DNA of 56,538 bases from NCBI GenBank assembly GCA_001821615.1, contig MHMS01000006.1, positions 1 through 56,538 on the forward strand, read 5' to 3'. Under the pieces are notes generated by a model. The model ran no database searches and was not told where the DNA came from. It saw only the letters and a list, made by a program, of their open reading frames with translations. Shown here piece after piece: positions 1,842 to 56,538 of this stretch. The position numbers were made by a program, and so were the translations under genes. How positions within the stretch are numbered: position 1 is the first letter of the stretch; each line of letters begins with the position of its first letter. The stretch comes from Candidatus Niyogibacteria bacterium RIFCSPLOWO2_12_FULL_41_13 (lineage in GTDB: Bacteria > Patescibacteriota > Minisyncoccia > 2-12-FULL-41-13).

Positions 1842-2717
1842 TTAAATTTTTTTATTTTTTAAATATCGTTTGAATTCGCCTTTGACCTCTTTGTGTTTCA
1901 AACCATAATCAACAATTGTTTTTAAAAACCCAATTTTTGAACCGCAGTCGTACATTGTTCCTTCATATTCCAAACCGTATATTGGTTTGGTTTTTAACAG
2001 CTTTTTAAACGCGTCGGTCAAATAAAGCTCTTGTTTTTTTAAATATTTCGGAAGTTTTTTTAATTTTTCCAAAATTTGGAAGATTTCCGGAGTAATTATA
2101 TATCTGCCGGCGAGCGCCAGATTTGAAGGCGCTTTTTCAGGCTCGGGTTTTTCCGCCATTCCGTCAATTTTGTATAATCTTTTTTCTATTTCTTTTCCTC
2201 TTATCACGCCGTATTTATGAACCTCCCTCTTTGGAACTTTTTTCAGGGCGACAACCGGCGCGTTATATTTTTCGTAAATATCAACTAATTGTTTAATAAC
2301 CGGTTTTTCGGAATCCGCTATCATATCGCCGAACAAAACAGCGCATGGTTCGTTATCAATCAAATGAGCGGCGTAAAGCAAAGCATCGCCGTTTCCTCTC
2401 GGCTCTTTTTGCCTGACATAAGAAAAATTCGCCATATCGGAAATTCTTTTAATTTCGTCGTATAGATTTTTTTTGCCGTTTTTAAGAAGAGCGCTTTCAA
2501 GTTCAAACGAATAATCAAAATGGTTTTCTATAGCGTGTTTGCCCCGGCCGGTGACAAAAATTATATCTTTAATGCCGGAAGCGACTGCTTCTTCTACAAT
2601 GAATTGGATAACCGGCTTATCAACAATCGGAAGCATTTCTTTCGGCTGGGCTTTTGTCGCCGGCAAAAATCTCGTGCCGAAACCCGCGACAGTGATAATC
2701 GCCTTTTTAATTTTCAT
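1842..2717 (-). CDS. galU: UTP-glucose-1-phosphate uridylyltransferase
   Basis: 291 aa. N-terminal AGFGTRFLPATKAQPKEMLPIVDKP nucleotidyltransferase motif typical of GalU. Confidence 0.9.
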   Translation of the reverse strand: MKIKKAIITVAGFGTRFLPATKAQPKEMLPIVDKPVIQFIVEEAVASGIKDIIFVTGRGKHAIENHFDYSFELESALLKNGKKNLYDEIKRISDMANFSYVRQKEPRGNGDALLYAAHLIDNEPCAVLFGDMIADSEKPVIKQLVDIYEKYNAPVVALKKVPKREVHKYGVIRGKEIEKRLYKIDGMAEKPEPEKAPSNLALAGRYIITPEIFQILEKLKKLPKYLKKQELYLTDAFKKLLKTKPIYGLEYEGTMYDCGSKIGFLKTIVDYGLKHKEVKGEFKRYLKNKKI

Positions 2718-2718
2718 A

Positions 2719-2857
2719 CCCAGTAAGACAATATCAAAATCCGCCTGCGTTCATCCGCAGTAGGACTTGTTAATGAATAATAGCTTAAATAGGGCTGGCT
2801 GTTCATTATGTTTATATAGAGATGGCGGGGATGAACTTTTGATATTGTCTTACTGGG
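2719..2857 (-). mobile_element. 139-bp TIR element, divergent-core member of the CCCAGTAAGAC family
   Basis: Perfect 21-bp TIRs CCCAGTAAGACAATATCAAAA (2719-2739) and its reverse complement (2837-2857). CATA lies on both outer flanks (2715-2718, 2858-2861). The core is unrelated to the 142-bp copies. Confidence 0.8.
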
Positions 2858-2867
2858 CATATTTTTG

Positions 2868-2875
2868 ATTATACA
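2868..2875 (-). promoter_or_regulatory. extended -10 promoter (TGTATAAT) upstream of the element/galU
   Basis: Minus strand reads TGTATAAT-caaaaat-ATG, with 7 nt between the -10 and the first ATG (2858-2860). Confidence 0.5.
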
Positions 2876-2894
2876 ATTTTTAAAATAAAAGAAA

Positions 2895-2916
2895 AAGCCC
2901 ATTAATTAAAGGGCTT
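2895..2916 (-). terminator. hairpin terminator (T-run on minus strand)
   Basis: AAGCCC-attaattaaa-GGGCTT stem-loop. The minus strand continues TTTTCTTTTATTTT. Confidence 0.5.
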
Positions 2917-3078
2917 GTTTTAATGAGAAGCGCCGCAACTTATGGAGGCGCTCATAACACAGAAAGGAGGAAAACTGTTATGAGCTTTGGAGGAAGCTGC
3001 GGCGCTACATAATACAGAACAATCTTCTAAAGATTAGTTTAAAAAATGCGCCGCGGAAAGTCAACCTCGTCCCCTCCC

Positions 3079-5042: not shown

Positions 5043-5107
5043 CCCCGTTAGAAGTCCGATGCGCTCCCGCATTAATAGTCGCCTTGGGCGACTTACTTCT
5101 AACGGGG
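5043..5107 (-). mobile_element. 65-bp miniature TIR element (CCCCGTTAGA family)
   Basis: 13-bp perfect TIR CCCCGTTAGAAGT (5043-5055) / ACTTCTAACGGGG (5095-5107). Flanks are TTCA (5039-5042) and TTCG (5108-5111). Confidence 0.7.
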
Positions 5108-5560
5108 TTCGTACTTTATTTCTATCTTGTCGTTGTCTCGCATAATATAGTTTTCAAATTCGCCGCTTTCTTTGCCGTTAATAAACATTTTTACTTTTCC
5201 AGTTTCGCCGTTGCAAAATTCAAAAATGCAGTTTGAATCAAATCTTTTTTTCCAAATTTTAAAAAATTGGCTAAGTTTAATATCGTTTTCTCTCACCGCG
5301 CGGCTGAATTCCATATGAATTATATTGTCGGCTTCATGAGTATGAAGGGGCAGATGAATCGCGCCAATACCGACATTTGCCGGAATTTCCTGTTTTTCGC
5401 CTTTGATATAAATTGAAAGCTCTGAATGCCAGTGAATTCCATTTTTGGAAATAAGTTTGTTATTCTCGCCATTGCTCGTTTTGCTCGCGGCGGAATACCA
5501 AATAAAAAAACCGGCAATCGCCGCCAAAATAATCGCAACTAAAATCGCCTTTTTACTCAT
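5099..5560 (-). CDS. membrane-anchored His-rich hypothetical protein
   Basis: 153 aa, N-terminal TM, HWHSELS...HTHEADNIIHME motifs. The last two codons and the TAG stop lie inside the element TIR. Confidence 0.55.
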   Translation of the reverse strand: MSKKAILVAIILAAIAGFFIWYSAASKTSNGENNKLISKNGIHWHSELSIYIKGEKQEIPANVGIGAIHLPLHTHEADNIIHMEFSRAVRENDIKLSQFFKIWKKRFDSNCIFEFCNGETGKVKMFINGKESGEFENYIMRDNDKIEIKYEPR

Positions 5561-14769: not shown

Positions 14770-15105
14770 TTAATTTTTGCCGGCCTCGCCGGTTTTTAAT
14801 AATTTTATTCCAATCCCGGAAATCTGCGCTCCTCCGTAGATTAAAACAAAAACCATCATTGACCAAATTGCCAGATTTAGCGATTTTGGCAAGCTATCCG
14901 CCGGTAAAATTTCCCGCAATTGCCCGCTCAACATGCTTTCAATCGCCGAAGATTCGCCTTTTTTCGTTTTCGTTTCAATTTTAATAATTTCCGGCGCCGA
15001 CTTTCTCCCGGTAAAAACATTATAGGAGGAATACAAGCTCCAGCCGATAATCATAAGCCCCGCCGCCAGCAATATCCAGCCAAAAATAATTTTAGGAGAT
15101 TCCAT
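14770..15105 (-). CDS. hypothetical membrane protein
   Basis: 111 aa with two TM segments. Confidence 0.4.
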   Translation of the reverse strand: MESPKIIFGWILLAAGLMIIGWSLYSSYNVFTGRKSAPEIIKIETKTKKGESSAIESMLSGQLREILPADSLPKSLNLAIWSMMVFVLIYGGAQISGIGIKLLKTGEAGKN

Positions 15106-16983: not shown

Positions 16984-17574
16984 TTAATCTTCTGCCGCGA
17001 CTTTTTCCATTATTACCGGACTTAACGGCTTGTCTTGGGAGTCCGTTTTTACATTTCCTATTTTATCAACAATATCCTGGCCTTTTACAACCTTTCCGAA
17101 AATAGTGTAATTATGGGGCAAGGGGTAATTTTCAAGCATTATGAAAAACTGACTGCCGTTTGTGTTTGGGCCGGCGTTTGCCATAACCACCGTTCCTTTT
17201 GTATAGCCGGCTTTGTACGATTCGGTCTGGGAATTTAGTTCGTCTTCAAATTGATATCCCGGGCCGCCGGCGCCGTTGCCGTTCGGGTCTCCGCCTTGAA
17301 TCATAAATCCCTTAATGACGCGATGAAAAGTCAAACCGTCGTAAAATCCCTTATTCGCCAGAGCGATAAAATTCGCGGCTGTTTTAGGCGCGTCAGAATC
17401 ATAAGTTTCAAACTGGATTTCGCCGAAATTGGTTTTAATGGAGATTAAATGTTTCATATTTTGATTTTGATTATTTGACGGCGTTGGTTTTGCCGATTTA
17501 TTATTCCAAAAAACATAAGCGCTGAAAACAATTAAAACCGCCAACGCGACAAAAACGATATTTTTTCCTTTCAT
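16984..17574 (-). CDS. ppiB: cyclophilin-type peptidyl-prolyl cis-trans isomerase with N-terminal anchor
   Basis: FHRVIKGFMIQGGDP...GPNTNGSQFFI motifs. Confidence 0.88.
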   Translation of the reverse strand: MKGKNIVFVALAVLIVFSAYVFWNNKSAKPTPSNNQNQNMKHLISIKTNFGEIQFETYDSDAPKTAANFIALANKGFYDGLTFHRVIKGFMIQGGDPNGNGAGGPGYQFEDELNSQTESYKAGYTKGTVVMANAGPNTNGSQFFIMLENYPLPHNYTIFGKVVKGQDIVDKIGNVKTDSQDKPLSPVIMEKVAAED

Positions 17575-18304: not shown

Positions 18305-19066
18305 TTATACGGCCAACCAGCCGCCGTCCACATAAAATGTGGCGCCGGTAACATAACTTGATTCTTCCGAAGCTAAAAAAACTACCATACTAGAAACTTC
18401 TTCGGGTCTGCCGATTCTTTTTAGCGGGACGCGCTGGAGCATTGCGTCCATCGCTTGTTTTGGAATTTGCGCCGCTTGCACCATAGGCGTATCAATCGCG
18501 CCCGGCGCTATAACATTCACATTAATTCCGAGAGGAGCCCACTCAATCGCGAGAGTTTCCGACATGCCTATAATTCCGCCCTTTGACGCGGTGTAGTGCG
18601 CTCCGCCGGTGATTCCCACGCCAACTTGCCCGGAAGCAACCGATGAAATATTGATAATCCTCCCCCATTTGTTTTTTGCCATTTCTTTCGCGGCTCGTTG
18701 CGCGCAAAGAAATTGTCCTTTCAGATTAATATCAATCATTTTATCCCACTCTTCTTCGGTAAGTTCCAGCGCCGGTTTTGAAAAATAAATTCCCGCGTTA
18801 TTCACTAAAACATCCAGACGGCCAAACTGTTTTATAACTTCGTCAAAAACCTGATTCACTTCAGCTTTGTTTGAAACATCCATCTTGAAACAGGCCGCTT
18901 CCCCGCCTTTTGATTTTATTTCTTCAACAACCGGCGCGCATTCGTTCGCGTCAATGTCCGTCACAACAACTTTCGCGCCTTGGCTCGCCAAAGCCAATGC
19001 GTGAGTTCTTCCCATTCCTCGCCTGCCGCCAGTAATCAAAGCTATCTTATTTTTGAGTTCAAACAT
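18305..19066 (-). CDS. SDR-family oxidoreductase (FabG-like)
   Basis: TGGRRGMG Rossmann motif, NNAG, YTASK catalytic motif. Confidence 0.88.
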   Translation of the reverse strand: MFELKNKIALITGGRRGMGRTHALALASQGAKVVVTDIDANECAPVVEEIKSKGGEAACFKMDVSNKAEVNQVFDEVIKQFGRLDVLVNNAGIYFSKPALELTEEEWDKMIDINLKGQFLCAQRAAKEMAKNKWGRIINISSVASGQVGVGITGGAHYTASKGGIIGMSETLAIEWAPLGINVNVIAPGAIDTPMVQAAQIPKQAMDAMLQRVPLKRIGRPEEVSSMVVFLASEESSYVTGATFYVDGGWLAV

Positions 19067-19129: not shown

Positions 19130-19584
19130 CGCTAGAGGCGGATCCGCCTTCGGCGGAAAAGCTTTGGCGAACAAATCGGCTGACAAGAATCCGACTTCTT
19201 CGGAAAACCTATCCCGTAGACAGACCTCGCTCTTTCCGCAGAAATGGCGGGGTTCTTCGGGGTCGGAAGTTCGTATCTAGTTTATTGGCTCCGAACGCTG
19301 AACGAAATCCGAACCTTTTTCCGCGAAAATCCTGACACTGATTTCTAACGCTCCGCCCCGCCGCCGCTCGCTAACGCTCGCCAGCCAGCAAAAAAGTTTT
19401 CTTCGCTTTTCCTGATTTGCGCGCGCCGGATTTTTTCTTCTGCAAAGGAAAAGAATGTTTTGCTTGGCTCTGCCCCTAACGAAGCAGGCGGCGGGGCTGG
19501 CCTCTTTTGTACTTGCTCGGACGGCTCGGCATTTCCTCCCCCCAACCCCCTCCTGCCGAGCCGTCCTTGCGTGGGCTGGCGGGA
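19130..19584. repeat. GC-rich mosaic repeat region R1
   Basis: Contains the 16-mer AGTTCGTATCTAGTTT (19268-19283). Also contains an inverted copy of a hairpin module with a 12-bp stem, GACGGCTCGGCA (19520-19531) / TGCCGAGCCGTC (19554-19565). Confidence 0.7.
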
Positions 19585-20874
19585 TTATTGAATTTTAACA
19601 GTTCCTTTCACTGGACGTCTAGTAATATCAGGTGAAACTCCGGCTTTTAATGCGGTTATAACGCCAGCGGCTTCCAGGTAATTATCCACGAAAAATACTT
19701 TATCATTTTTGAATGGAAGTTTTCGTAAGTCATTCTGCATCAGATTTTTATTTCCCCTTACAACAATCAGCGGAATATTGTTTTCTAAACATGCAAGCGT
19801 AGGCAAGCCAATACAACCATCGGGAATAACAACACAAGATACGTCCTCAAGGGTTATGCCATGATTTGACCCAACAATTCGAGGTGAACGGAACAACCCT
19901 TTTAGTACGCTATGCAAGTAGGTTGTGGAAGCAGATTCCGGTGCTTTTCTGGGGTCGACAACGCCTAACTCCAATTCCATAATTTCGCTTGAAGTCATCA
20001 TCGGAGAGTGAGCGCAGGGAATCTTGTATATTTCCGCAATACTATGAGTTAGCATCGCTTCTATGCCACCCCACGGGTTTATCATTTCGTCGGTTGAGAA
20101 ATACTTTTTGTGGTAGTCATCAGGCACTTTTATAAAAGTTGATAAACCGATAGCATCATAATTGTCTTTGAATTTCTCAATTACCGAAAAAAGATTTTCT
20201 AAACCACTTACTTCACCAATAGCTCGTCCAGATTGCGCATACTTTGAGATGCTTGTTATCAGATTCTCCATTTCATATACGTCGCAATCCATACCTAAGG
20301 TAATCCTGGCCGCCGATACCGCATTTATTATTTCTTCGTTGAAGAAACTTTCTGGGTGTTTATCCATCAGCATTAACACCCGGTTTGATCTGACCTTCTG
20401 CAACCCTATCTGACCAAGCAGTAACTTTGATAAAACGCTCCCTTCAACATACTGTGTGTTGTCTAGCATTTCGTTGATGTCCGCCGCATTAACTACATTT
20501 GGATGCGTTATGAGAATGTCGCTTGCCGCACCGATAAGCCGGGCAACTGAATTTCCATCGCCACAATGGCCTCCAATTTCTGCCCCGATACCCGTCGGGA
20601 TGAGAAGGACTGTGGTAAATTTATTGGTGTTTTCGTATTCCCGCTTCCTAAAATCAAAAACATTTCCTGCTAACGCAGTATATTTTTCCCCGGAAACGAT
20701 TGCGTCAATTTCACAATAATATCCTTGCTCATCAGATTTTGGGACGACAAATCTTACTATCCGATGAGGAATCTCTTTAGACAGAGTAGTCGCGTAATAA
20801 TGTTTCAAACTGGACAAATTTACTAAATCCAGTTTTTCTTTTGGGATGAATTGCTCAAAAGTTATTATTTTCAT
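19585..20874 (-). CDS. conserved uncharacterised protein (PTGIGAEIGGHCGDGN motif; possibly DUF3326-like)
   Basis: 429-aa ORF. LLIPTGIGAEIGGHCGDGNSVARLIGAASDILITHPNVVNAAD is reminiscent, from memory only, of DUF3326 proteins. ATGA overlap with the upstream gene. Confidence 0.5.
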   Translation of the reverse strand: MKIITFEQFIPKEKLDLVNLSSLKHYYATTLSKEIPHRIVRFVVPKSDEQGYYCEIDAIVSGEKYTALAGNVFDFRKREYENTNKFTTVLLIPTGIGAEIGGHCGDGNSVARLIGAASDILITHPNVVNAADINEMLDNTQYVEGSVLSKLLLGQIGLQKVRSNRVLMLMDKHPESFFNEEIINAVSAARITLGMDCDVYEMENLITSISKYAQSGRAIGEVSGLENLFSVIEKFKDNYDAIGLSTFIKVPDDYHKKYFSTDEMINPWGGIEAMLTHSIAEIYKIPCAHSPMMTSSEIMELELGVVDPRKAPESASTTYLHSVLKGLFRSPRIVGSNHGITLEDVSCVVIPDGCIGLPTLACLENNIPLIVVRGNKNLMQNDLRKLPFKNDKVFFVDNYLEAAGVITALKAGVSPDITRRPVKGTVKIQ

Positions 20875-24155: not shown

Positions 24156-24520
24156 GCCCCGCAAAAAATCCGCCAGCCCACGCGAAGACGGCTCGGCAGG
24201 AGGGGGTTTGGGGGACGCCCCGAAGCAGAACAAGTTCGCTACGGGGTAAAAATGCCGAGCCGTCCGAGCGAACCCTCTTATCTTCAAAATCCGAGTTCGT
24301 ATCTAGTTTTGTGACTCTGTATTCTTAAGATAGTTCGAACGCATTTCGCCGCCTGCGGCGGCGAGGAAGTCCCGCCCGCAAGTGCGGCTCTGCCGCGCCG
24401 ACCTGTCCGCCGAAGTTTTAACGAAGGCGGATGACAATTTTCCGCCTACGTTTTCCGAGCTACGGCGGACAAGCAAGTTTTTCTTTGGCGGCAAATTCTT
24501 TGTTCTTTCAAATTCAAAAA
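24156..24520. repeat. GC-rich mosaic repeat region R2
   Basis: Direct-orientation hairpin module (stem 24187-24198 / 24253-24264), the 16-mer AGTTCGTATCTAGTTT (24294-24309), and a module shared with 30350-30472. Confidence 0.7.
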
Positions 24521-24563: not shown

Positions 24564-25196
24564 TCATGCTTCCTTCGGAATCAGCGAGAACGCGAGTTCC
24601 TCGACTTCAACCATCTGAGCGAGGTTGAGAGCTTGGTTGTAGAGCGACTTGCGGTGTTCCGCAAAGCCCTTGATGACCTTACCAAGCTCTTTCCACATCC
24701 GCTGGGGTTTCTCCTTGGTCTTTGTAGCGATAGCGGGTAGGTCGGTCTCGACAATCTCGACAGTTCTTGCTCTCTCGTAGCCGCGATCCTTGTAACCATT
24801 CTCACCCACGAAACCGATGGTCACGAGAACCCACAGGCCGGAACGCGTGAGTCCCCATACTCGCATTGTTCCGTCTGGACAGTTCACACCGCCAGGAGGT
24901 GGACGATGACCGCTGTTGGGGATTCGCTCCACGGCTGACCACGGCTGTATCCGGAAGATTCCCTGCGTCTTGAGCGAGAACCGCTCGTCTCCGATGGTGG
25001 TTGCGATGTCCAACCGAAGCATGTGTGTGAAGCTGGTTTCACTCCGCATGCATTCGAGCGTGCCGAGTTCGGGAAGCGTGAATGAATCAAGGTGCGGTTT
25101 GATGAGCTCGCGACGGGCCTCGATTAGGCCAAACCACTCCTCATCGATGAGCTGATTCTTACGAACGAACACTTCTAATCCTTTGGTTGAGGGCAT
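24564..25196 (-). CDS. hypothetical protein, compositionally foreign (GC-rich)
   Basis: 211 aa from the ATG at 25196, preceded by GGAGGAGGG. GC content is visibly far above the surroundings. It has its own terminator. No recognisable domain. Confidence 0.6.
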   Translation of the reverse strand: MPSTKGLEVFVRKNQLIDEEWFGLIEARRELIKPHLDSFTLPELGTLECMRSETSFTHMLRLDIATTIGDERFSLKTQGIFRIQPWSAVERIPNSGHRPPPGGVNCPDGTMRVWGLTRSGLWVLVTIGFVGENGYKDRGYERARTVEIVETDLPAIATKTKEKPQRMWKELGKVIKGFAEHRKSLYNQALNLAQMVEVEELAFSLIPKEA

Positions 25197-25458
25197 ACCC
25201 TCCTCCTTTCTGGTTTTGAGAGGCGTACCTCTCGCCAAAAGTATCTTCGCACACGTCTAGTTATTAGTCAATCAAAAACAGAAATTTTTTCAAGTTTCCG
25301 TTTCCAAAATCATTATGCAAAATTTTTCTTTTCCCAAAATGGAAAACCGCCAATTCAAATTTTCGCCCAGAAAACCTTACGATTTGGTCGCCGAGTCCGC
25401 CAAAAGGGCGGATAAACTCCGCGAGGCGACTTCCAAAACCTTGCAATTTTCTAACTGA

Positions 25459-25757
25459 CTCCGCGGGTAGGATTCGAACCTACGACCAAGTGCTTACAAC
25501 TTTCTCATTATTACTAACGAGGTTGGACTATATCTTTACCATACCAAATTTTTAATTCGGATTAGGTATCTCGGTATCTAGTCTCTACGGCGCCCGAGCA
25601 CATAAAGCATTATGTGCTCGGTTCCCACGGTATTACCGAGCACATAACAAGTTTATGTGCTCGGCTTCACCGTTATCCCAAGATGTTCATTCCAAAGTTT
25701 CCTTTGGAAGCTGCAAGTTTTTTACAGGCACCTGCGCTACCGCTGCGCTACCGCGGA
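25459..25757 (-). tRNA. tRNA-Asn(GUU) interrupted by a group I intron in the anticodon loop
   Basis: 5' exon 25724-25757 (TCCGCGGTAGCGCAGCGGTAGCGCAGGTGCCTGT) and 3' exon 25459-25496 (TAAGCACTTGGTCGTAGGTTCGAATCCTACCCGCGGAG). The spliced product is a cloverleaf with U1-A72, G73 and anticodon loop CUGUUAA. Confidence 0.8.
25497..25723 (-). ncRNA. group I (IC3-like) intron, 227 nt, no ORF
   Basis: The 5' exon ends in U, paired as U.G in P1 (CUGU/GCAG). The intron ends in G. The core GUAGAGACUAGA is identical to the Azoarcus/Anabaena tRNA intron core as recalled from memory. There is a P9-like hairpin CUCGUUA-GUAA-UAAUGAG. Confidence 0.75.
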
Positions 25758-25863: not shown

Positions 25864-27093
25864 TCAATATCCTTCAAGGCGATACGCCAGCTTGTGCTTT
25901 TTTATTTTTTCCAGCGCCTTCATTTCAATTTGCCGGATTCTTTCACGGGTTACGCCGAATTCTTTGCCGACTTCTTCCAAAGTGTAAGACACGCCGTCTT
26001 CCAAACCGAATCTCATCGCCAAAATTTTCTGCTCTCGGGGCGCGAGCTCGGAAATGATTTCTTTTATCTGGTCGCGCAAAAATTTGAGGCTTGTCGCTTG
26101 TTCGGGAGAAAGAGTTTTCTCGTCGGGCACGAATTCCCGAATCGTCACTTCTTCTTTTTCTTCCGGTTCTCCCACGGGCGTTTCCAAAGAAATAGTGTCT
26201 TGCGAAATTTTCTGCAGATGGCGGACTTTTTCAACCGGCAAATTCATTTCAGCCGCGATTTCCTGAATAAACGGGTCGCGGCCGAGTTCTTGCGTCAATC
26301 TCCTGACCGCTTGCTGGTATTTGCTTAAAATTTCAACAATATGAACCGGTAGCCGTATGATTTTTCCCTGGTCGGCCAACGCTCTGGTGATTGCCTGGCG
26401 TATCCACCAGGTGGCATAGGTTGAAAATTTAAAACCCCTTCTCCAGTCAAATTTTTCAACCGCCCGGAAAAGCCCCAGATTTCCTTCTTGAATCAAATCA
26501 AGCATAGTCAGATTGGAACTGCGTCCGAGATAACGTTTGGCGATTGAAACTACGAGTCGCAGATTCGCCAAAATCAGCTTGTTTTTCGCTTCTTCATCTC
26601 CTTGTTCAATCCTTTTTGATAAATCTTTTTCTTCCTGAAAAGTAAGAAGTTTAATTTTGCCGATTTCCCGCAAGTAGGATTGAATGGAATCCATGGAGAG
26701 ATGCTCCATAACATGTTCGGGTTCGGCGCTCGCGCCTGATTTTTTCTTTTCTTTTTCAAGTTCAAAGGGGCTTTTTTCTTCTATAATTTCAATATTAGAG
26801 CCCCTTATTTTTTCAAATGTTTCTTCCAAAAATAAAATATCTTCTTCAATGTTCGGAAAGTAAGTTAAAATTTCGCCGTGGGTCACAAATCCCTTTGCCC
26901 TGCCCTTTTTTATAAGCTCTTTCAATTTTTCTTCTTTTTTGCCGGCTTTCAGCGTTTTTTCGGCGACTGTTTCCAACTTGACCTTTTTTGGCCTTCCTCT
27001 TTTTTTGCCCGCCTGCCGGTAGGCATTGCCCGCCTGAATTTTTTTTGAAATTTTGGCGGATGCGGATGATTTTTTCGGTCTTCCTCTTTTCAT
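25864..27093 (-). CDS. rpoD: RNA polymerase sigma-70 factor with AT-hook-like N-terminus
   Basis: Regions 2-4 are conserved ([48 protein letters not shown]). Confidence 0.93.
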
Positions 27094-27094
27094 A

Positions 27095-27236
27095 CCCAGT
27101 AAGACTAAATCGAATATTTCTTGCTAAATCCGCAAGCGGATATTCGACTATTATTATACTTAATTTTAATTTTGTAATAAAACATGTTTATACCACGCAA
27201 GAAACTAGATTTAGCATTCGATTTTGTCTTACTGGG
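27095..27236 (-). mobile_element. 142-bp TIR element, CCCAGTAAGAC family (copy A)
   Basis: TIRs are 21 bp with one mismatch. CATA on both flanks (27091-27094, 27237-27240). Nearly identical to copies at 29014 and 47347. Confidence 0.85.
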
Positions 27237-27251
27237 CATATTTTTTAATCG

Positions 27252-29000: not shown

Positions 29001-29013
29001 TTTTTATTATATA

Positions 29014-29155
29014 CCCAGTAAGACTAAATCGAATATTTCTTGCTAAATCCGCAAGCGGATATTCGACTATTATTATACTTAATTTTAATTTTGTAATAAA
29101 ACATGTTTATACCACGCAAGAAACTGGATTTAGCATTCGATTTTGTCTTACTGGG
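29014..29155 (-). mobile_element. 142-bp TIR element, CCCAGTAAGAC family (copy B)
   Basis: Nearly identical to copy A (at least one substitution, 27206 a vs 29125 g). Flanks are TATA (29010-29013) and CATA (29156-29159). Confidence 0.85.
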
Positions 29156-29166
29156 CATATTAAATT

Positions 29167-29817
29167 TTAAACCTTTTTTCCGCGTTTTTCCCGCCATTCT
29201 TTTATTTTTTTATGGTGTCCCGACAAAAGGATTTTTGGAACGGCGTATTTTTTATTTTTCCATTTTATAATTTCCGGCCTTGTATAGACCGGATATGAAC
29301 CTTTGATTTCTTCGAGCGAGCCGTATTTGCCCAAAACTCCGGGAATATGGCGAACCAAAGCGTCAATAAAAACCATTGCGGGAAGCTCGCCTCCGGTTAA
29401 AACGTAATCCCCTGTTGAAACTTCCTCCGCTTTTAAAATTTTCTTGACTCTTTCGTCAATTCCTTCGTAGCGTCCGCAAATCAAAATAAAATTATCGTAT
29501 TTTTCGGCGAAATTTCTTGCCATTTTTTGATTAAATGTTTTTCCTCTCGGCGAAAAAATAATAATTTTTGAATTTGCGTTTTGCGATTTGCGCTTTGCTT
29601 TGTCCGCCGCTTTAACTATCGGTTCAACTTGCATCACCATCCCTGGCTCTCCTCCATAAGGCCGAGTGTCAACCTTGCGGCGCTTGTCGCTTGTAAAGTC
29701 GCGGGGATTATAAAATTTTACTTTGAGAAATTTATTTTTGGCCCGGCTCAAAATTGAACTGTTTAAATAAGAATCAAATGATTCCGGAAAAATCGTGATG
29801 ATATGAAAATTTTTCAT
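29167..29817 (-). CDS. trmD: tRNA (guanine37-N1)-methyltransferase
   Basis: MKNFHIITIFPESF start and GGELPAMVFIDA...LLSGHH motifs. The track ORF is extended upstream to 29856. Confidence 0.9.
   Translation of the reverse strand: MKNFHIITIFPESFDSYLNSSILSRAKNKFLKVKFYNPRDFTSDKRRKVDTRPYGGEPGMVMQVEPIVKAADKAKRKSQNANSKIIIFSPRGKTFNQKMARNFAEKYDNFILICGRYEGIDERVKKILKAEEVSTGDYVLTGGELPAMVFIDALVRHIPGVLGKYGSLEEIKGSYPVYTRPEIIKWKNKKYAVPKILLSGHHKKIKEWREKRGKKV
29573..29600. repeat. 4 x heptamer tandem repeat (TTTGCNN) inside trmD
   Basis: tttgcgt tttgcga tttgcgc tttgctt. Confidence 0.7.
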
Positions 29818-37589: not shown

Positions 37590-37676
37590 TTAATAAAAAT
37601 TTCTAATTTCTAATATCTAATTTCTAAATAATCCAAAATTCAAAATCCCAAATCCTAAACTTTTCAATTCTAAACC
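37590..37676. repeat. 7-nt periodic AT-rich array upstream of ftsZ
   Basis: tttctaa tttctaa tatctaa tttctaa ataatcc aaaattc aaaatcc caaatcc. Partly duplicated at 39132-39181. Confidence 0.6.
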
Positions 37677-37696
37677 TTAATTAAAGAATAATCAAA

Positions 37697-38008
37697 TTAT
37701 TTCCTGTTTATTATTTTTGATTCAAGGAGAGCCACTCTTTTTGTTAAAATTTCAAATTCTTCAAAATCAACTTTTTTTCGCAAAGAGTTTTTAATTATTT
37801 CCATATTCATTTTTATCATCACTATGTCTTCGGTATTTTTTGCCACCATTTCGCGAAGGATAACGAGTTGTTCCTGAATTCCGCCGACAGATTCCGCCAA
37901 TAATTTCATATCAGACCTCAAATCCTCGGCCACTATGTCAAAATGCCGCCGAGTTTCCTCGCTCTGCTTTTTAATAAACGATTTCAATTTTTCCTCATTG
38001 ATTTCCAT
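37697..38008 (-). CDS. small coiled-coil hypothetical protein (inserted ORF)
   Basis: 103 aa. The ORF is bounded within 1 nt by 19-bp direct repeats (37677-37695, 38008-38026). Confidence 0.55.
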   Translation of the reverse strand: MEINEEKLKSFIKKQSEETRRHFDIVAEDLRSDMKLLAESVGGIQEQLVILREMVAKNTEDIVMIKMNMEIIKNSLRKKVDFEEFEILTKRVALLESKIINRK

Positions 38009-38047
38009 TAATCAAAGAATAAACAATGGTTTAAAAATAGTCAAAAC

Positions 38048-38076
38048 TTGACAAAATTTTGGGAATTTGCTATTCT
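38048..38076 (+). promoter_or_regulatory. sigma70-type promoter (cassette copy 1)
   Basis: TTGACA-17 nt-TATTCT, within a ~120-bp block duplicated at 39182-39303. Confidence 0.55.
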
Positions 38077-38131
38077 TTTTGCAGGATTTATTCTTTATTT
38101 TTAAGGTCTTTAACTAAAAGGAAGGTGGAAA

Positions 38132-39122: not shown

Positions 39123-39221
39123 ATCCAAATAATGTCTAATTTCTAAATAATCCAAAATCCCGAACTTTTAAATTCTAAACCTTAATCAAAGAATAAACAA
39201 TGGTTTAAAAATAGTCAAAAC

Positions 39222-39250
39222 TTGACAGAATTTTGAGAATTTGCTATCCT
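39222..39250 (+). promoter_or_regulatory. sigma70-type promoter (cassette copy 2)
   Basis: TTGACA-17 nt-TATCCT. Paralogue of 38048-38076. Confidence 0.55.
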
Positions 39251-39309
39251 TTTTGCAGGATTTGTTATATTTTCTGGTCTTTAACTAAGAAACTAAGAGG
39301 AGGTTGGGA

Positions 39310-39627: not shown

Positions 39628-41808
39628 ATGTTTCTCCAAGAACCTCTTGAAAAATATCTTTATCTGAACAAAAAACAAAAATTCGTTCTTCAAAAAGCCG
39701 GATTTAATAAAGTTGAGGATTTGCTCCGCCATTTTCCGAACGACTATAAAAAATTCGTTTCGCTGAAAAAAATACGGGAATTGAAACCGGATGAAGAAGC
39801 GAGAATAGGGGCGAAAATTTTATCAAGCAAACTCAAGAGAAGCTGGAAAAAAAGAATTCCGGTTGTTGAATTTTTGGTTCAGGATGAAAGCGGAATTCTG
39901 CGGATTACTTGGTTCAATCAGCCGTATTTGGCAAAAACATTAAAACAAGGAGAATTTTATTATTTCACCGGAAAAATTTATCGCGACAAATCCGGTTCAT
40001 TGATGATAAATCCCGTCTGGGCGCTTTCCGCCGATAGGCAAGAAAAAGAAATTGAGGAAATTTCCAACGAAGAAAAATTTTATCCGGTTTATCCTGAAAT
40101 TTACGGATTATCCAGCCGATGGATTGCCGAAAAAATCAAAAAACTGCTCTTGGAAATCAAAGATATTGATTTGCCCGAAATTTTGCCGAAATTCATCCTT
40201 CAAAAATATCATCTTCCGGATTTTAAAACCAGCGTTTTCGCGGCTCATCAGCCGAAAAATCCGAAACATTTTGAAGCCGTCAAAAAACGCTTTTCTTTTG
40301 AAGAAATTTTTTTATTGCAATTGTCGCGGCTTAAAGAAAAAATCTCCCGCAAAAAACTTCCGGCCTTTGAAATGAAAATCAGCCGGAAAGAAATAAATTC
40401 ATTCATTAAGTTTTTTGATTTTGAACTGACAAACGCTCAAAAAAAAGCCGTTAAAACGCTCTTGGACGACCTAAAAAAACCGGAATCAATGACAAGATTG
40501 CTTGAAGGAGATGTTGGCTCCGGAAAAACGGCGGTTGCGATTATTATTTCTTACGCCGCGCTAAAATCCGGTTATCAAATCGCTTATATGGCGCCGACCG
40601 AAGTTTTGGCCCGCCAAATTTACGAAGAATTTATAAAATTTTTAAAACCCTTCCGCGCCAAAATCGGACTCCTTACTTCTTCTCAAAGCCGAAAATATCC
40701 GTCAAAAGCTTTTCCAAACAAAGATACGCAAATTTCAAAAAATCAGCTGTTGAAATGGGTTTTAGGCGGCGAAATTCCCGTTTTAATAGGAACTCACAGT
40801 TTAACCTATGAAAAAGTGAAATTTAACAAGCTTGGGCTTGTCATTATAGACGAACAGCACCGTTTCGGAATCAAACAAAGAGGGCTTTTAGCAAAAAAAA
40901 CTTCAAAAGAATTGCCCTCCATTCCCCATCTTCTTTCAATGACCGCCACGCCGATTCCAAGAACATTGGCGCTTACCATTTACGGCGACCTTGATTTGAC
41001 ATTGCTTGATGAAATGCCCCCAGGCAGAAAAAAAATCAAAACCATAATCGTGCCGCCGGAACAGAGAGAAAGAGCCTATGAGATGATGAGAGAAGAAATA
41101 AAAAACGGAAGGCAAGCGTATGTGGTCTGTCCGAGAATAGAACAAAAATCGCAAATCGCAAAGCGCAAAGCGCAAAGCGCAAAATTTGAAGAAAAACTTC
41201 ATCAAGAACCGGAGGAAGAAATAAAAGCGGTAAAGAGCGAATATAAAAGATTGAGCGAGAAAATTTTTCCGGAATTAAAACTTGGGATTTTACACGGCCG
41301 GCTTTTGCCAAAAGAAAAAGAAGAAGTCATAAAAAAATTTAAAAAAGGCGAAATTCAGATTTTAACAAGCACTTCGGTTATTGAAGTGGGCATAAATATC
41401 CCGAATGCCACAATGATTTTAATAGAAGGCGCGGAAAGATTCGGTTTAGCGCAATTACACCAATTAAGAGGCCGGGTCTTGAGAAGCGTCTATCAGCCGT
41501 ATTGCTTTATTTTCACCGAACATTCATCGCAAAAAATACTGGCTCGCTTAAACGCCTTGACTAAATCGCAAAACGGATTTGAACTCGCGGAATACGATTT
41601 AAAATTCCGCGGTCCCGGGGAACTGACCGGCGCAAAACAATGGGGAATTTCTGATATCGGAATGCTCGGCCTTAAAAACCTCAAAATGGTTGAAGCGGCG
41701 AGAACCGAAGCCGAAGAACTCCTGCGAGAAGATTTTGAACTCAAAAATTATCCGTTGTTAAAGGAAACAATTTCAAAATTATCGCGTTCCCCCGTCCATT
41801 TAGAATAA
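39628..41808 (+). CDS. recG: ATP-dependent DNA helicase RecG
   Basis: Wedge/OB N-terminus, GDVGSGKT Walker A, DEQHRFG, and helicase C motifs. The start is taken at MFLQEPLEKY. Confidence 0.9.
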   Translation: MFLQEPLEKYLYLNKKQKFVLQKAGFNKVEDLLRHFPNDYKKFVSLKKIRELKPDEEARIGAKILSSKLKRSWKKRIPVVEFLVQDESGILRITWFNQPYLAKTLKQGEFYYFTGKIYRDKSGSLMINPVWALSADRQEKEIEEISNEEKFYPVYPEIYGLSSRWIAEKIKKLLLEIKDIDLPEILPKFILQKYHLPDFKTSVFAAHQPKNPKHFEAVKKRFSFEEIFLLQLSRLKEKISRKKLPAFEMKISRKEINSFIKFFDFELTNAQKKAVKTLLDDLKKPESMTRLLEGDVGSGKTAVAIIISYAALKSGYQIAYMAPTEVLARQIYEEFIKFLKPFRAKIGLLTSSQSRKYPSKAFPNKDTQISKNQLLKWVLGGEIPVLIGTHSLTYEKVKFNKLGLVIIDEQHRFGIKQRGLLAKKTSKELPSIPHLLSMTATPIPRTLALTIYGDLDLTLLDEMPPGRKKIKTIIVPPEQRERAYEMMREEIKNGRQAYVVCPRIEQKSQIAKRKAQSAKFEEKLHQEPEEEIKAVKSEYKRLSEKIFPELKLGILHGRLLPKEKEEVIKKFKKGEIQILTSTSVIEVGINIPNATMILIEGAERFGLAQLHQLRGRVLRSVYQPYCFIFTEHSSQKILARLNALTKSQNGFELAEYDLKFRGPGELTGAKQWGISDIGMLGLKNLKMVEAARTEAEELLREDFELKNYPLLKETISKLSRSPVHLE
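41149..41183. repeat. 5 x heptamer tandem repeat (NCGCAAA) inside recG
   Basis: tcgcaaa tcgcaaa gcgcaaa gcgcaaa gcgcaaa. Confidence 0.8.
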
Positions 41809-55987: not shown

Positions 55988-56404
55988 TTACAACCCTTCG
56001 CAGTTTCCAGCCGGTTTATATCCCGCTTTTTCCGCCTCTTCTTTGGAAGAAAAATAAATTTTATTTTCTTCTTTTATTCTTTTCGCTCCTGAACACCAAG
56101 TATAGTGGTAAAGATTGCTGTTTTTGCTCCCGACTAAGATTCTATTCTGTTCTTTATTTTCTGTAATTTGCGATTTGCTATTTGCTATTTGCGCTTTGCT
56201 ATCCGCGCTTTGCGATTTATCGGCGATTTTTTCTTCTCCAACCTCTTCAAACCAAATCGGATATTTTTGCTCTTCCAAAACCGACATCCTTCCCAATCCA
56301 AAAGCGATAAAAGCCATTAAAATAAAACTCGCGCTTATAAATAACTCTTTTTTATTGTCGTCAATGAATTTCTTGACTTTCTTTATTTTCTCAATTAAAC
56401 TCAT
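55988..56404 (-). CDS. membrane-anchored protein with C-terminal Cys-pair domain
   Basis: 138 aa with an N-terminal TM. C-terminal NLYHYTWCSGAKRI...FSSKEEAEKAGYKPAGNC. Confidence 0.5.
   Translation of the reverse strand: MSLIEKIKKVKKFIDDNKKELFISASFILMAFIAFGLGRMSVLEEQKYPIWFEEVGEEKIADKSQSADSKAQIANSKSQITENKEQNRILVGSKNSNLYHYTWCSGAKRIKEENKIYFSSKEEAEKAGYKPAGNCEGL
56167..56215. repeat. 7 x heptamer tandem repeat (TTTGCNN) inside a CDS
   Basis: tttgcga tttgcta tttgcta tttgcgc tttgcta tccgcgc tttgcga. Confidence 0.8.
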
Positions 56405-56455
56405 GAAATAACTTTACTTTAAACTTTTCACTTTTAACTTTCAACTTGTAATATG

Positions 56456-56538
56456 CCCAGTAAGACAAAATCGAATGCTAAATCTAGTTTCTTGCGTGGT
56501 ATAAACATGTTTTATTACAAAATTAAAATTAAATATAA
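56456..56538 (+). mobile_element. CCCAGTAAGAC-family element (copy D), opposite orientation, cut by window end
   Basis: The plus strand reads TATG|CCCAGTAAGACAAAATCGAATGCTAAATCTAG..., the reverse complement of copies A-C. Confidence 0.8.

Follow-up and report, generated by a model that had tools for sequence, protein, structure and literature searches.

Mycobacterial interspersed repetitive units (MIRUs), which are GC-rich, are the closest described counterparts of the element analyzed here, a 139-bp insertion at the start codon of galU in Candidatus Niyogibacteria bacterium RIFCSPLOWO2_12_FULL_41_13 (contig MHMS01000006.1, positions 1 to 56,538; this whole stretch of 56,538 nt is referred to as the window). 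MIRUs are mobile repeats that insert at start codons or between the genes of an operon, following the direction of the genes, and carry an internal open reading frame (ORF) coupled to the gene at a spacing of −4 nt, and their insertion is thought to have little effect on expression (PMC12548453). They measure about 40–100 bp, form tandem arrays that are used for typing and have at most imperfect terminal inverted repeats (TIRs); tetranucleotide direct repeats flank the filled sites, and the ORFs overlap the adjacent genes (PMC3184786). The galU element belongs to a family of MITEs (miniature inverted-repeat transposable elements) showing TATG target duplication that occupies the start codons of housekeeping genes in a single orientation. 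The family resembles MIRUs in its start-codon position, in following the direction of the gene and in a small ORF with a stop codon that overlaps the start of the following gene (−4 nt, ATGA type). Unlike MIRUs, it is AT-rich and 137–147 bp long and has perfect 21-bp TIRs (about 33 bp and imperfect in the B-type copies described below), a defined TATG target and a B-type stop codon that is encoded by the element and lies 11 nt before the start. The principle of start-codon insertion is not new, being already known from MIRUs. By analogy, the family from Patescibacteria appears to work like a MIRU, but it is not filed as one, since size, composition, TIRs, target and phylum set it apart, and relatedness to MIRUs at the sequence level is not expected.

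Other small mobile elements share single features with the family. Neisseria Correia elements (CREE/NEMIS) are MITEs of about 100–155 bp with long TIRs that are co-transcribed with neighboring genes, form long RNA hairpins, can contain promoters and can be cut by RNase III. Their duplication is TA, their insertions are spread over intergenic DNA and may face either way, and to our knowledge neither start-codon targeting nor a bridging ORF has been described for them. The likeness to our family lies in size, TIR hairpin and presumed co-transcription, whereas target, position and orientation rules differ: the duplication is TATG instead of TA, and the TIR, CCCAGTAAGAC..., appears to depart from the Correia consensus. 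A general description of Correia elements is found in the same source as that of Neisseria REP2 and similar Borrelia repeats, which lie immediately upstream of genes and supply an ATG together with a translational start context (PMC3184786). The latter repeats lack TIRs and target duplications and fuse promoter, ribosome-binding site and ATG to the gene, without a coupled cistron. Rickettsia palindromic elements (RPEs) are small and mobile and are tolerated in expressed genes by virtue of an open frame (Ogata et al. 2000, as cited in PMC3184786). An RPE inserts in frame into a coding sequence and becomes part of the protein, whereas the galU element is out of frame and terminates at the start of the gene. 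Elements derived from IS200/IS605 and REPINs produce no target duplication and carry subterminal hairpins or doublets of repetitive extragenic palindromes (REPs). With these, our family has in common the fixed orientation beside a fixed tetranucleotide, the hairpin that the whole element can form and the presence of a RAYT-like (REP-associated) Y1 gene in the genome; off-target duplications and long TIRs instead point to a staggered-cut transposase, and the local RAYT has other REPs. In the literature that we searched, no start-codon-specific TIR element, TATG-specific insertion sequence or Patescibacteria MITE was described.

The galU element (2719–2857) is bordered on both sides by TATG, which reads CATA on the plus strand, and its TIRs, CCCAGTAAGACAATATCAAAA (2719–2739) and the arm at 2837–2857, are perfect reverse complements. 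With the flanks counted, the inverted repeat reaches 24 nt at 96%. A search with the 21-mer TIR, allowing up to three mismatches, returned both arms and four related sites in the window, compared to no chance matches in 100 shuffles; TIRs and duplication at galU are far beyond chance. The gene product matches the Pfam family NTP_transferase and is identical to the 291-aa GenBank entry OGZ32516.1 (Candidatus Niyogibacteria, Rifle aquifer), annotated there as UTP--glucose-1-phosphate uridylyltransferase. On the gene strand, the locus reads TGTATAAT-caaaaat-ATG CCC AGT AAG ... TAC TGG GTA TGA AAA ATT (Table 1). The frame opened by the outer ATG encodes MPSKTISKVHPRHLYINIMNSQPYLSYYSLTSPTADERRRILILSYWV in 48 codons, a peptide without a match to any Pfam family. 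Since the two ATGs are 143 nt apart (139 + 4), the ORF of the element lies in the +1 frame and closes on ATGA. An earlier note, made from the letters of this DNA alone, had described the length, TIRs and flanks of the element, an extended −10 box 7 nt from the outer ATG and a stop-free 48-codon ORF overlapping galU. Each item of the element structure could be re-read directly from the sequence, the box was found as TGTATAAT at 2875–2868, and translation from 2860 to 2714 reproduced both the ORF and its overlap. The 139-bp insert is present at the same place in 8 of 9 fetched loci that encode the exact protein, and because these loci come from several assembly sources (ENA, JGI and NCBI assemblies), the arrangement is not an assembly artefact. 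As a separate observation, the region between a 425-aa ORF and the galU promoter (2881–3078, minus strand) contains a long imperfect hairpin (approximately 2925–3012), followed by a terminator-like stem, AAGCCC-N10-GGGCTT, and a T-run (both within 2881–2916). This region upstream of galU and the element gave no real Rfam match; it may represent an unannotated small RNA with its terminator directly before the galU −10 box.

Table 1. Positions of the galU insertion and of the other family copies in the window
Feature	Positions	Strand	Remarks
galU, UTP-glucose-1-phosphate uridylyltransferase, 291 aa	1842–2717	−	Gene hit at its start codon
48-codon ORF with TGA stop	2714–2860	−	Spans the entire element; TGA 2716–2714 in ATGA overlap with the galU ATG
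Gene-proximal TATG copy	2715–2718	−	ATG 2717–2715 is the galU start codon
Gene-proximal TIR, 21 bp	2719–2739		
A-type element core	2740–2836	−	TATAAACAT block in common with B-type; in-frame internal ATG; GC hairpin CTGCG-gatgaa-CGCAG
Promoter-proximal TIR, 21 bp	2837–2857		
Promoter-proximal TATG copy of the 4-bp duplication	2858–2861	−	ATG 2860–2858 opens the element ORF; preceded by caaaaat (2867–2861)
Extended −10 box TGTATAAT	2868–2875	−	7 nt 5' of the outer ATG; leaderless-type arrangement
B-type copy at rpoD	27091–27240	−	Element 27095–27236 (142 bp), TATG on both sides, exactly on the start of rpoD (25864–27093); ORF of 44 codons, 27239 to 27105, ending 11 nt short of the rpoD ATG at a TAG in the gene-proximal TIR
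B-type copy at dnaG	29010–29159	−	Element 29014–29155, 13 nt 5' of the dnaG ATG (29000)
B-type copy at rpsP	47321–47492	−	Element 47347–47488, then 18-nt solo-TIR stub 47325–47342, then TATG start of rpsP (47015–47323)
B-type copy at rpmA	56452–56538	+	Starts at 56456; cut by the window end; complete in L164

Elements with the same TIRs, for which the earlier note had proposed to search the genome, turned out to form a multi-copy family. Five copies are found in the window, the A-type element at galU and four B-type elements at the starts of rpoD, dnaG, rpsP and rpmA. The B-type copies are 142 bp long and have the terminal CCCAGTAAGAC, the TATAAACAT block and a short GC hairpin in common with the A-type element; their TIRs extend over about 33 bp, interrupted by a single mismatch and an internal loop, and the core composition in the family is approximately 26–43% GC. 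Scanning JGI metagenomes with the pattern CCCAGTAAGAC-N(100-130)-GTCTTACTGGG yielded 31 loci (designated by L numbers here), mostly from the same aquifer. Altogether, there are about 28 distinct insertion sites in Patescibacteria of the Rifle aquifer (Candidatus Niyogibacteria and relatives), and window and metagenome loci comprise 33 flank/element combinations with 32 distinct element sequences. As several metagenome contigs pair one flank with different partners, counts were made on distinct downstream flanks. The earlier note had proposed to test whether element lengths are always 1 mod 3. The lengths are not random: 27 of the 33 combinations measure 139 bp (13) or 142 bp (14), both 1 mod 3, and lengths of 137, 138, 143 (two copies), 146 and 147 bp occur as well. 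When the contig was extended at both ends by about 10 kb, the number of copies stayed at five, now in about 76 kb; a scan of genome contigs with 14 specified bases produced 118 chance hits, none with a paired TIR, and a scan of viral contigs only chance matches.

Single copies show how the family behaves at individual genes. At dnaG, the duplication on the gene side (29010–29013) is TATA instead of TATG, so that a perfect TATAAT now stands 5 nt from the dnaG ATG on its upstream side; the same arrangement is seen in a related strain (L163) and may represent a compensatory new leaderless promoter. The rpmA gene lies on the plus strand, and the complete copy in L164 ends on its start TATG GCT CAC GTC (MAHVKK..., ribosomal protein L27). 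Tandem arrays, namely a B-139 followed by an A-137 element in L129/L145 and a full copy with a stub at rpsP, are expected, because each insertion makes a new TATG target. A 147-bp C-type element with the same 11-nt termini and an unrelated core is located on the TATG start of galU in another organism (L134, 888–1034, metagenome Ga0315274) and is a second independent hit on this gene. Next to the rpsP copy, the SMC gene (47481–49748) now stops at a TAA within the TIR, in the frame TAT GCC CAG TAA, and before the insertion it would have ended 6 nt further on, overlapping the rpsP start. Heptamer-like tandem repeats (ATTTGCG/ATTTGCT; complement CGCAAAG) were noticed at 56159–56214, 29572–29599 and 41137–41183, two of them near element copies.

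The TATG next to the element contains the sole conserved bases within 24 nt of either flank, and for 22 of the 26 distinct downstream flanks it borders the element at both ends. Copies at non-canonical sites duplicate their own flank (TAAT/TAAT in L147, TCATA/TCATA in L152 and ATG/ATG in L135), indicating that TATG does not belong to the element but is a true target-site duplication, left by a staggered cut of 3–5 bp. When the elements are oriented by their internal sequence, one and the same end is preceded by TATG, and never by CATA, at each of the 26 distinct A- and B-type sites. With 137–147 bp, no transposase gene, only ORFs of 44–48 codons that match no Pfam family, TIRs, a target duplication, dispersed copies and empty orthologous sites, the family shows features by which bacterial MITEs are recognized. 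At 21 of 28 non-tandem sites, the inner ATG opens an ORF of at least 94 codons, and every element follows the direction of its gene. Of the 319 TATG sites counted on the two strands of the window, 76 are non-coding, and 20 of these 76 are start codons. Compared to the 26% expected for random non-coding TATGs, 75% of the observed sites are start codons (binomial P ~1e-7). Three copies away from start codons are still co-oriented with the neighboring genes, two of them in the standard TATG orientation. The targets are mostly housekeeping genes: sigma-70 (rpoD), S16 (rpsP), L27 (rpmA) and, in two organisms, GalU were identified by Pfam or alignment, whereas serS, ddl, mreB, pth and the ribosomal proteins L10, L25, S6 and an S1-like protein were judged from N-terminal sequences only. 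Where a comparison was made, with GalU relatives, L27 and S16, the hit ATG corresponds to the true N-terminus. The universal TATG target, the orientation lock on housekeeping start codons and the MIRU precedent go beyond what the earlier note had described.

An empty galU site, which the earlier note had suggested looking for in related genomes, was found in part. The nearest GalU homologs with usable contigs, 88% and 85% identical (L159 and L160), start with TATG ACG ATT AAA AAG and carry no element, so that the TATG start is unoccupied there, but the promoter junction cannot be directly confirmed, as the upstream regions differ. Two GalU variants, P0122 (L162) and P0002 (L161), were considered as empty alleles and rejected, because foreign N-terminal parts are joined to the galU of the window; both are probably assembly chimeras or recombinants. 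In the related strain GCA_036721485.1, the copies at dnaG and rpoD are unchanged, and the element at galU (L127) is a 138-bp hybrid whose upstream flank differs, which probably originated from recombination or mis-assembly between two A-type copies.

The frame across the element is preserved beyond galU. In A-139 elements, the frame of the outer ATG is open for 48 codons up to ATGA, and it is open for 43 codons in B-139 and 44 codons in B-142 elements, where the first base of a TAG lies 14 nt before the A of the gene's start codon. All 22 distinct sequences of the B-139 and B-142 classes have this TAG, 11 nt short of the gene ATG, the frame is kept despite many differences in the peptide, and the two classes differ by an in-frame indel of 3 nt. 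The TAG arises from the one position at which the two TIR arms mismatch in their terminal 24 bp (GACAAAATC versus GATTTAGTC); the B-type stop is therefore encoded by the element and does not depend on the second codon of the gene. If the element were inverted, a stop would end the frame after 15 codons (A) or 11 codons (B), at a distance of more than 95 nt from the gene. Shuffling of the core gave chance probabilities for an open frame of 0.157 (A), 0.062 (B-139) and 0.028 (B-142), and the evidence from the frames alone is moderate. Of the expectations raised in the earlier note, uninterrupted frames in relatives hold up to the gene-proximal TIR in the 139- and 142-bp classes, with a few interrupted members outside this pattern, and closure on ATGA applies at galU but is specific to the A-type subfamily, given that B-type frames end at the TAG.

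In the predicted transcript, the TIRs pair in a stem of 23–24 bp with both AUGs at its foot. The fold has an energy of −52.6 kcal/mol at galU (z = −6.0), where the outer AUG pairs with the UAU before the inner AUG, and the rpoD copy behaves in the same way (−51.3 kcal/mol, z = −6.6). The terminal approximately 34 nt on each side are invariant in 21 B copies, and the core varies. None of the 46 predicted pairs covaried among these 21 copies, that is, no compensatory changes were seen beyond the invariant TIRs, and a search of the element against Rfam returned only sub-threshold plant miRNA precursor hairpins (13–22 bits compared to thresholds of 100–171). An RNase III with the Pfam domains Ribonuclease_3 and dsrm is encoded at 49607–50299. 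Shine-Dalgarno (SD) sequences are rare among the genes of the window, and several genes have TATAAT 6–10 nt before the ATG. The same geometry of −10 box and ATG is seen at 5099–5560, 16984–17574, 18305–19066 and 14770–15105; the sequence is TGTATAAT-tagtat-ATG in the case of 5560 and GATATAAT-aaaaat-ATG in that of 19066. The leaderless-type promoter postulated in the earlier note is credible in light of the few SD sequences and the recurring TATAAT, and the galU junction would fit this promoter type, which seems to be common in the genome.

In our opinion, these features are best explained by a start-codon MITE that is tolerated through translational coupling, to which we assign a probability of about 0.6. 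The target TATG was the galU start codon preceded by T, where the element integrated and duplicated the tetranucleotide. Thereby, the outer ATG would inherit the native initiation signal, the TGTATAAT box 7 nt on its 5' side as is typical of leaderless mRNAs, and the inner ATG copy stays joined to galU. Ribosomes would begin at the outer AUG, and translation of the 48-codon frame through the element would melt the 24-bp TIR stem around both AUGs. After termination on the UGA of AUGA, they would re-initiate on galU, or the unmasked start would permit initiation by a new ribosome. Re-initiation and unmasking are established forms of translational coupling (PMC12548453). The B-type relatives may follow the same route by way of the TAG from the TIR mismatch, 11 nt before the AUG of the gene. 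We infer transcription start, ORF translation and coupling from the sequence. If only start-codon insertions in the given orientation leave the gene expressed, such copies would be those that survive in a compact, mostly essential genome. The reverse orientation ends the frame early and leaves the gene AUG in the stem, so that purifying selection would result in the orientation lock. Insertion and expression must be reconcilable, since the element is carried by rpoD, rpsP and rpmA, which are essential.

Several observations weigh against a coupling function of the element. The open frame at galU alone has a chance probability of about 0.16 in dinucleotide shuffles of the core, and its significance derives from the family context rather than from the single frame. 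No stop-creating variant was seen among the B copies, but as the substitutions would have been expected to produce only about 0.85 of them, their absence is not evidence of selection. Some members with interrupted frames still sit on intact genes. In the 143-bp copy of L136 (3550–3692), one of two such copies with a 1-nt insertion, the ORF stops 57 nt before a 396-codon gene, and in the 147-bp C-type element of L134 it stops after 14 codons on a 289-aa GalU. The 137-bp and the A-like L143 copies also have interrupted frames, and in the 138-bp hybrid of L127 the frame is split into ORFs of 18 and 30 codons that are ATGA-linked to each other and to galU. The same element flank is joined to different partners in L127, in L133/L137/L151 and in L155/L157, indicating that some flank combinations are assembly chimeras; either the 140-bp repeat leads to such chimeras, or the copies truly recombine with each other through it. 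With symmetric TIRs, a DDE-type (acidic-triad cut-and-paste) transposase offers no mechanistic reason for an orientation, and the orientation lock could instead come from an orientation-specific enzyme, which would take away one argument for selection on the ORF. Furthermore, a search of the window, of about 355 kb of related loci and of viral contigs revealed no autonomous partner with the same TIRs.

The variants with broken ORFs in front of intact genes would be accounted for if galU were driven by an outward promoter in the element, or by internal initiation on its unstructured AU-rich 3' part, and the long ORF were incidental. We consider this unlikely. On the gene strand, a promoter-like hexamer pair, TGAACA-17-TATTAT, is predicted in the A-type element at 2805–2777, and TAAACA-16-TAAAAT and ATTACA-17-AATAAT are predicted in the rpoD copy, the TAAACA block is conserved between A and B types, and a transcript from inside the element would lack the 5' TIR arm and leave the gene AUG free. 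However, the sites are weak (9 of 12 matches, with 2–3 found compared to about 1 expected in shuffles), the candidate −10 varies among B copies (TATAAT, CGTAAT, CACAAT), and neither the open ATG frame of three diverged subfamilies up to the gene-proximal TIR nor the 3-nt length difference between subfamilies would be explained. The perfect predicted stem of 23–24 bp with both AUGs at its foot, the invariant ends of both arms and the presence of RNase III in the genome raise the question whether the TIR hairpin of the mRNA could suffice without translation of the ORF, either by an RNase III cut that produces a galU mRNA with a short leader, as with the Correia elements of Neisseria, or by loop-out of the insertion, which would bring the original initiation context beside the inner AUG. 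This appears quite doubtful to us: the hairpin is symmetric and leaves the strict orientation unexplained, invariant termini are equally expected from transposase binding, the predicted pairs do not covary, and loop-out does not recreate a 5'-terminal AUG for a leaderless mRNA. It is highly improbable that nothing about the insertion is adaptive and that it represents a neutral or mildly deleterious accident, with galU poorly expressed or expressed by read-through and the frame and ATGA coincidental. The probability of 0.16 for the open frame at galU, the powerless substitution test and the dependence of ATGA on galU's own second codon, AAA, would permit this, but the same geometry is found on the essential genes rpoD, rpsP and rpmA, which cannot be silent. 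The start-codon enrichment, the orientation lock in every A and B copy, the open frame in three subfamilies and the fact that many samples and assemblies retain this exact GalU protein together with the element likewise argue against an accident.

A different question is whether orientation and start-codon bias reflect the chemistry of transposition and not selection. A single-strand HUH/Y1-type enzyme might insert the element 3' of TATG on one strand, with the second TATG being an element-borne replacement start. We assign a low probability to this possibility, although the orientation relative to a non-palindromic tetranucleotide in 26 of 26 sites is as in IS200/IS605, the entire element can fold as one long hairpin and the three copies off start codons remain co-oriented with their neighbors. 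A gene for a RAYT-like Y1 (HUH) transposase of 231 aa is present between pyrG and rpmA just past the right end of the window (L164, 1686–2381), about 430 bp from the rpmA copy, and its product has an HYH motif and a YIHLNP tyrosine motif. In contrast, the duplicated flanks of the off-target copies (2–3 informative cases) indicate a staggered cut of 3–5 bp, and the family has long TIRs and not distinct subterminal hairpins. The Y1 gene is single-copy in the sequences analyzed and flanked by its own, unrelated REP-like hairpins (three of the form CGACAT-NNN-ATGTCG, with one more in L146 and none in the window). These hairpins and the lack of association with other element copies speak against it as mobilizer of the family. 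Moreover, an HUH/Y1 enzyme would bear on how the element moves, not on expression, for which the coupling model could hold all the same. No transposase of any kind is encoded in the window. A 1.3-kb inverted pair in viral contigs (L174) was considered as an insertion sequence and dismissed, as it lies within two long unrelated coding ORFs. Going by the CC termini and the 4–5 bp duplications, the parent of the family may be IS1380-like.

As a tentative extension that we do not favor, the family might consist of start-codon-homing elements that recognize TATG in a fixed polarity, possibly on single-stranded DNA, and whose sequence has evolved as a portable translational relay. Such a relay could conceivably comprise four parts, namely a TIR compatible with an ATG, a core free of stops, a stop that the element itself encodes in the distal TIR and a stem tying downstream initiation to translation of the relay. 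If this were true, the relay would let the element colonize the start codons of genes that are essential in a minimal genome while the host survives, and housekeeping genes might share a common translational control.

Under the preferred coupling model, the family would illustrate how transposons can spread in a streamlined genome in which hardly any DNA is dispensable, with the start codon as landing site and the damage repaired by a built-in coupled frame. An independent, TIR-bearing counterpart of MIRUs suggests that start-codon insertion with a relay ORF is recurrent and not a mycobacterial oddity. The copies also provide natural test cases for re-initiation on leaderless or SD-less mRNAs, with an ATGA overlap compared to an 11-nt gap, and with and without the 24-bp stem. 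For the annotation of Patescibacteria, it is relevant that the 140-bp inserts lengthen apparently intergenic regions and break metagenome assemblies, and that they can be mis-called as N-terminal extensions, as for rpmA, which was called with 82 or 94 aa in different assemblies.

Outside the family, the window contains further features of potential interest. A match to the group I intron family (Rfam RF00028, 59.9 bits, gathering score 50) is located at 25504–25733 on the minus strand, just 3' of rpoD; ARAGORN detected no tRNA at these positions, and the adjacent ORF 24564–25238 has no Pfam match. A GC-rich inverted repeat of 54 nt (89% complementary, 19537–19590 and 24162–24215) brackets a block of 4.6 kb that encodes a TdeIII-type restriction endonuclease, an N6/N4 DNA methylase, a DUF3326 protein and an AdoMet decarboxylase, with a GC content above that of its surroundings. 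The block is probably a mobile restriction-modification island, and as the repeats bracket this island and no transposase, they were rejected as the ends of an autonomous element. Finally, two pairs of direct repeats, one of 92 nt (92% identical, 38008–38099 and 39182–39273) and one of 52 nt (37644–37695 and 39149–39200), contain a promoter-like TTGACA...GCTATTCT and constitute a duplicated upstream region with copies approximately 1.2–1.5 kb apart.

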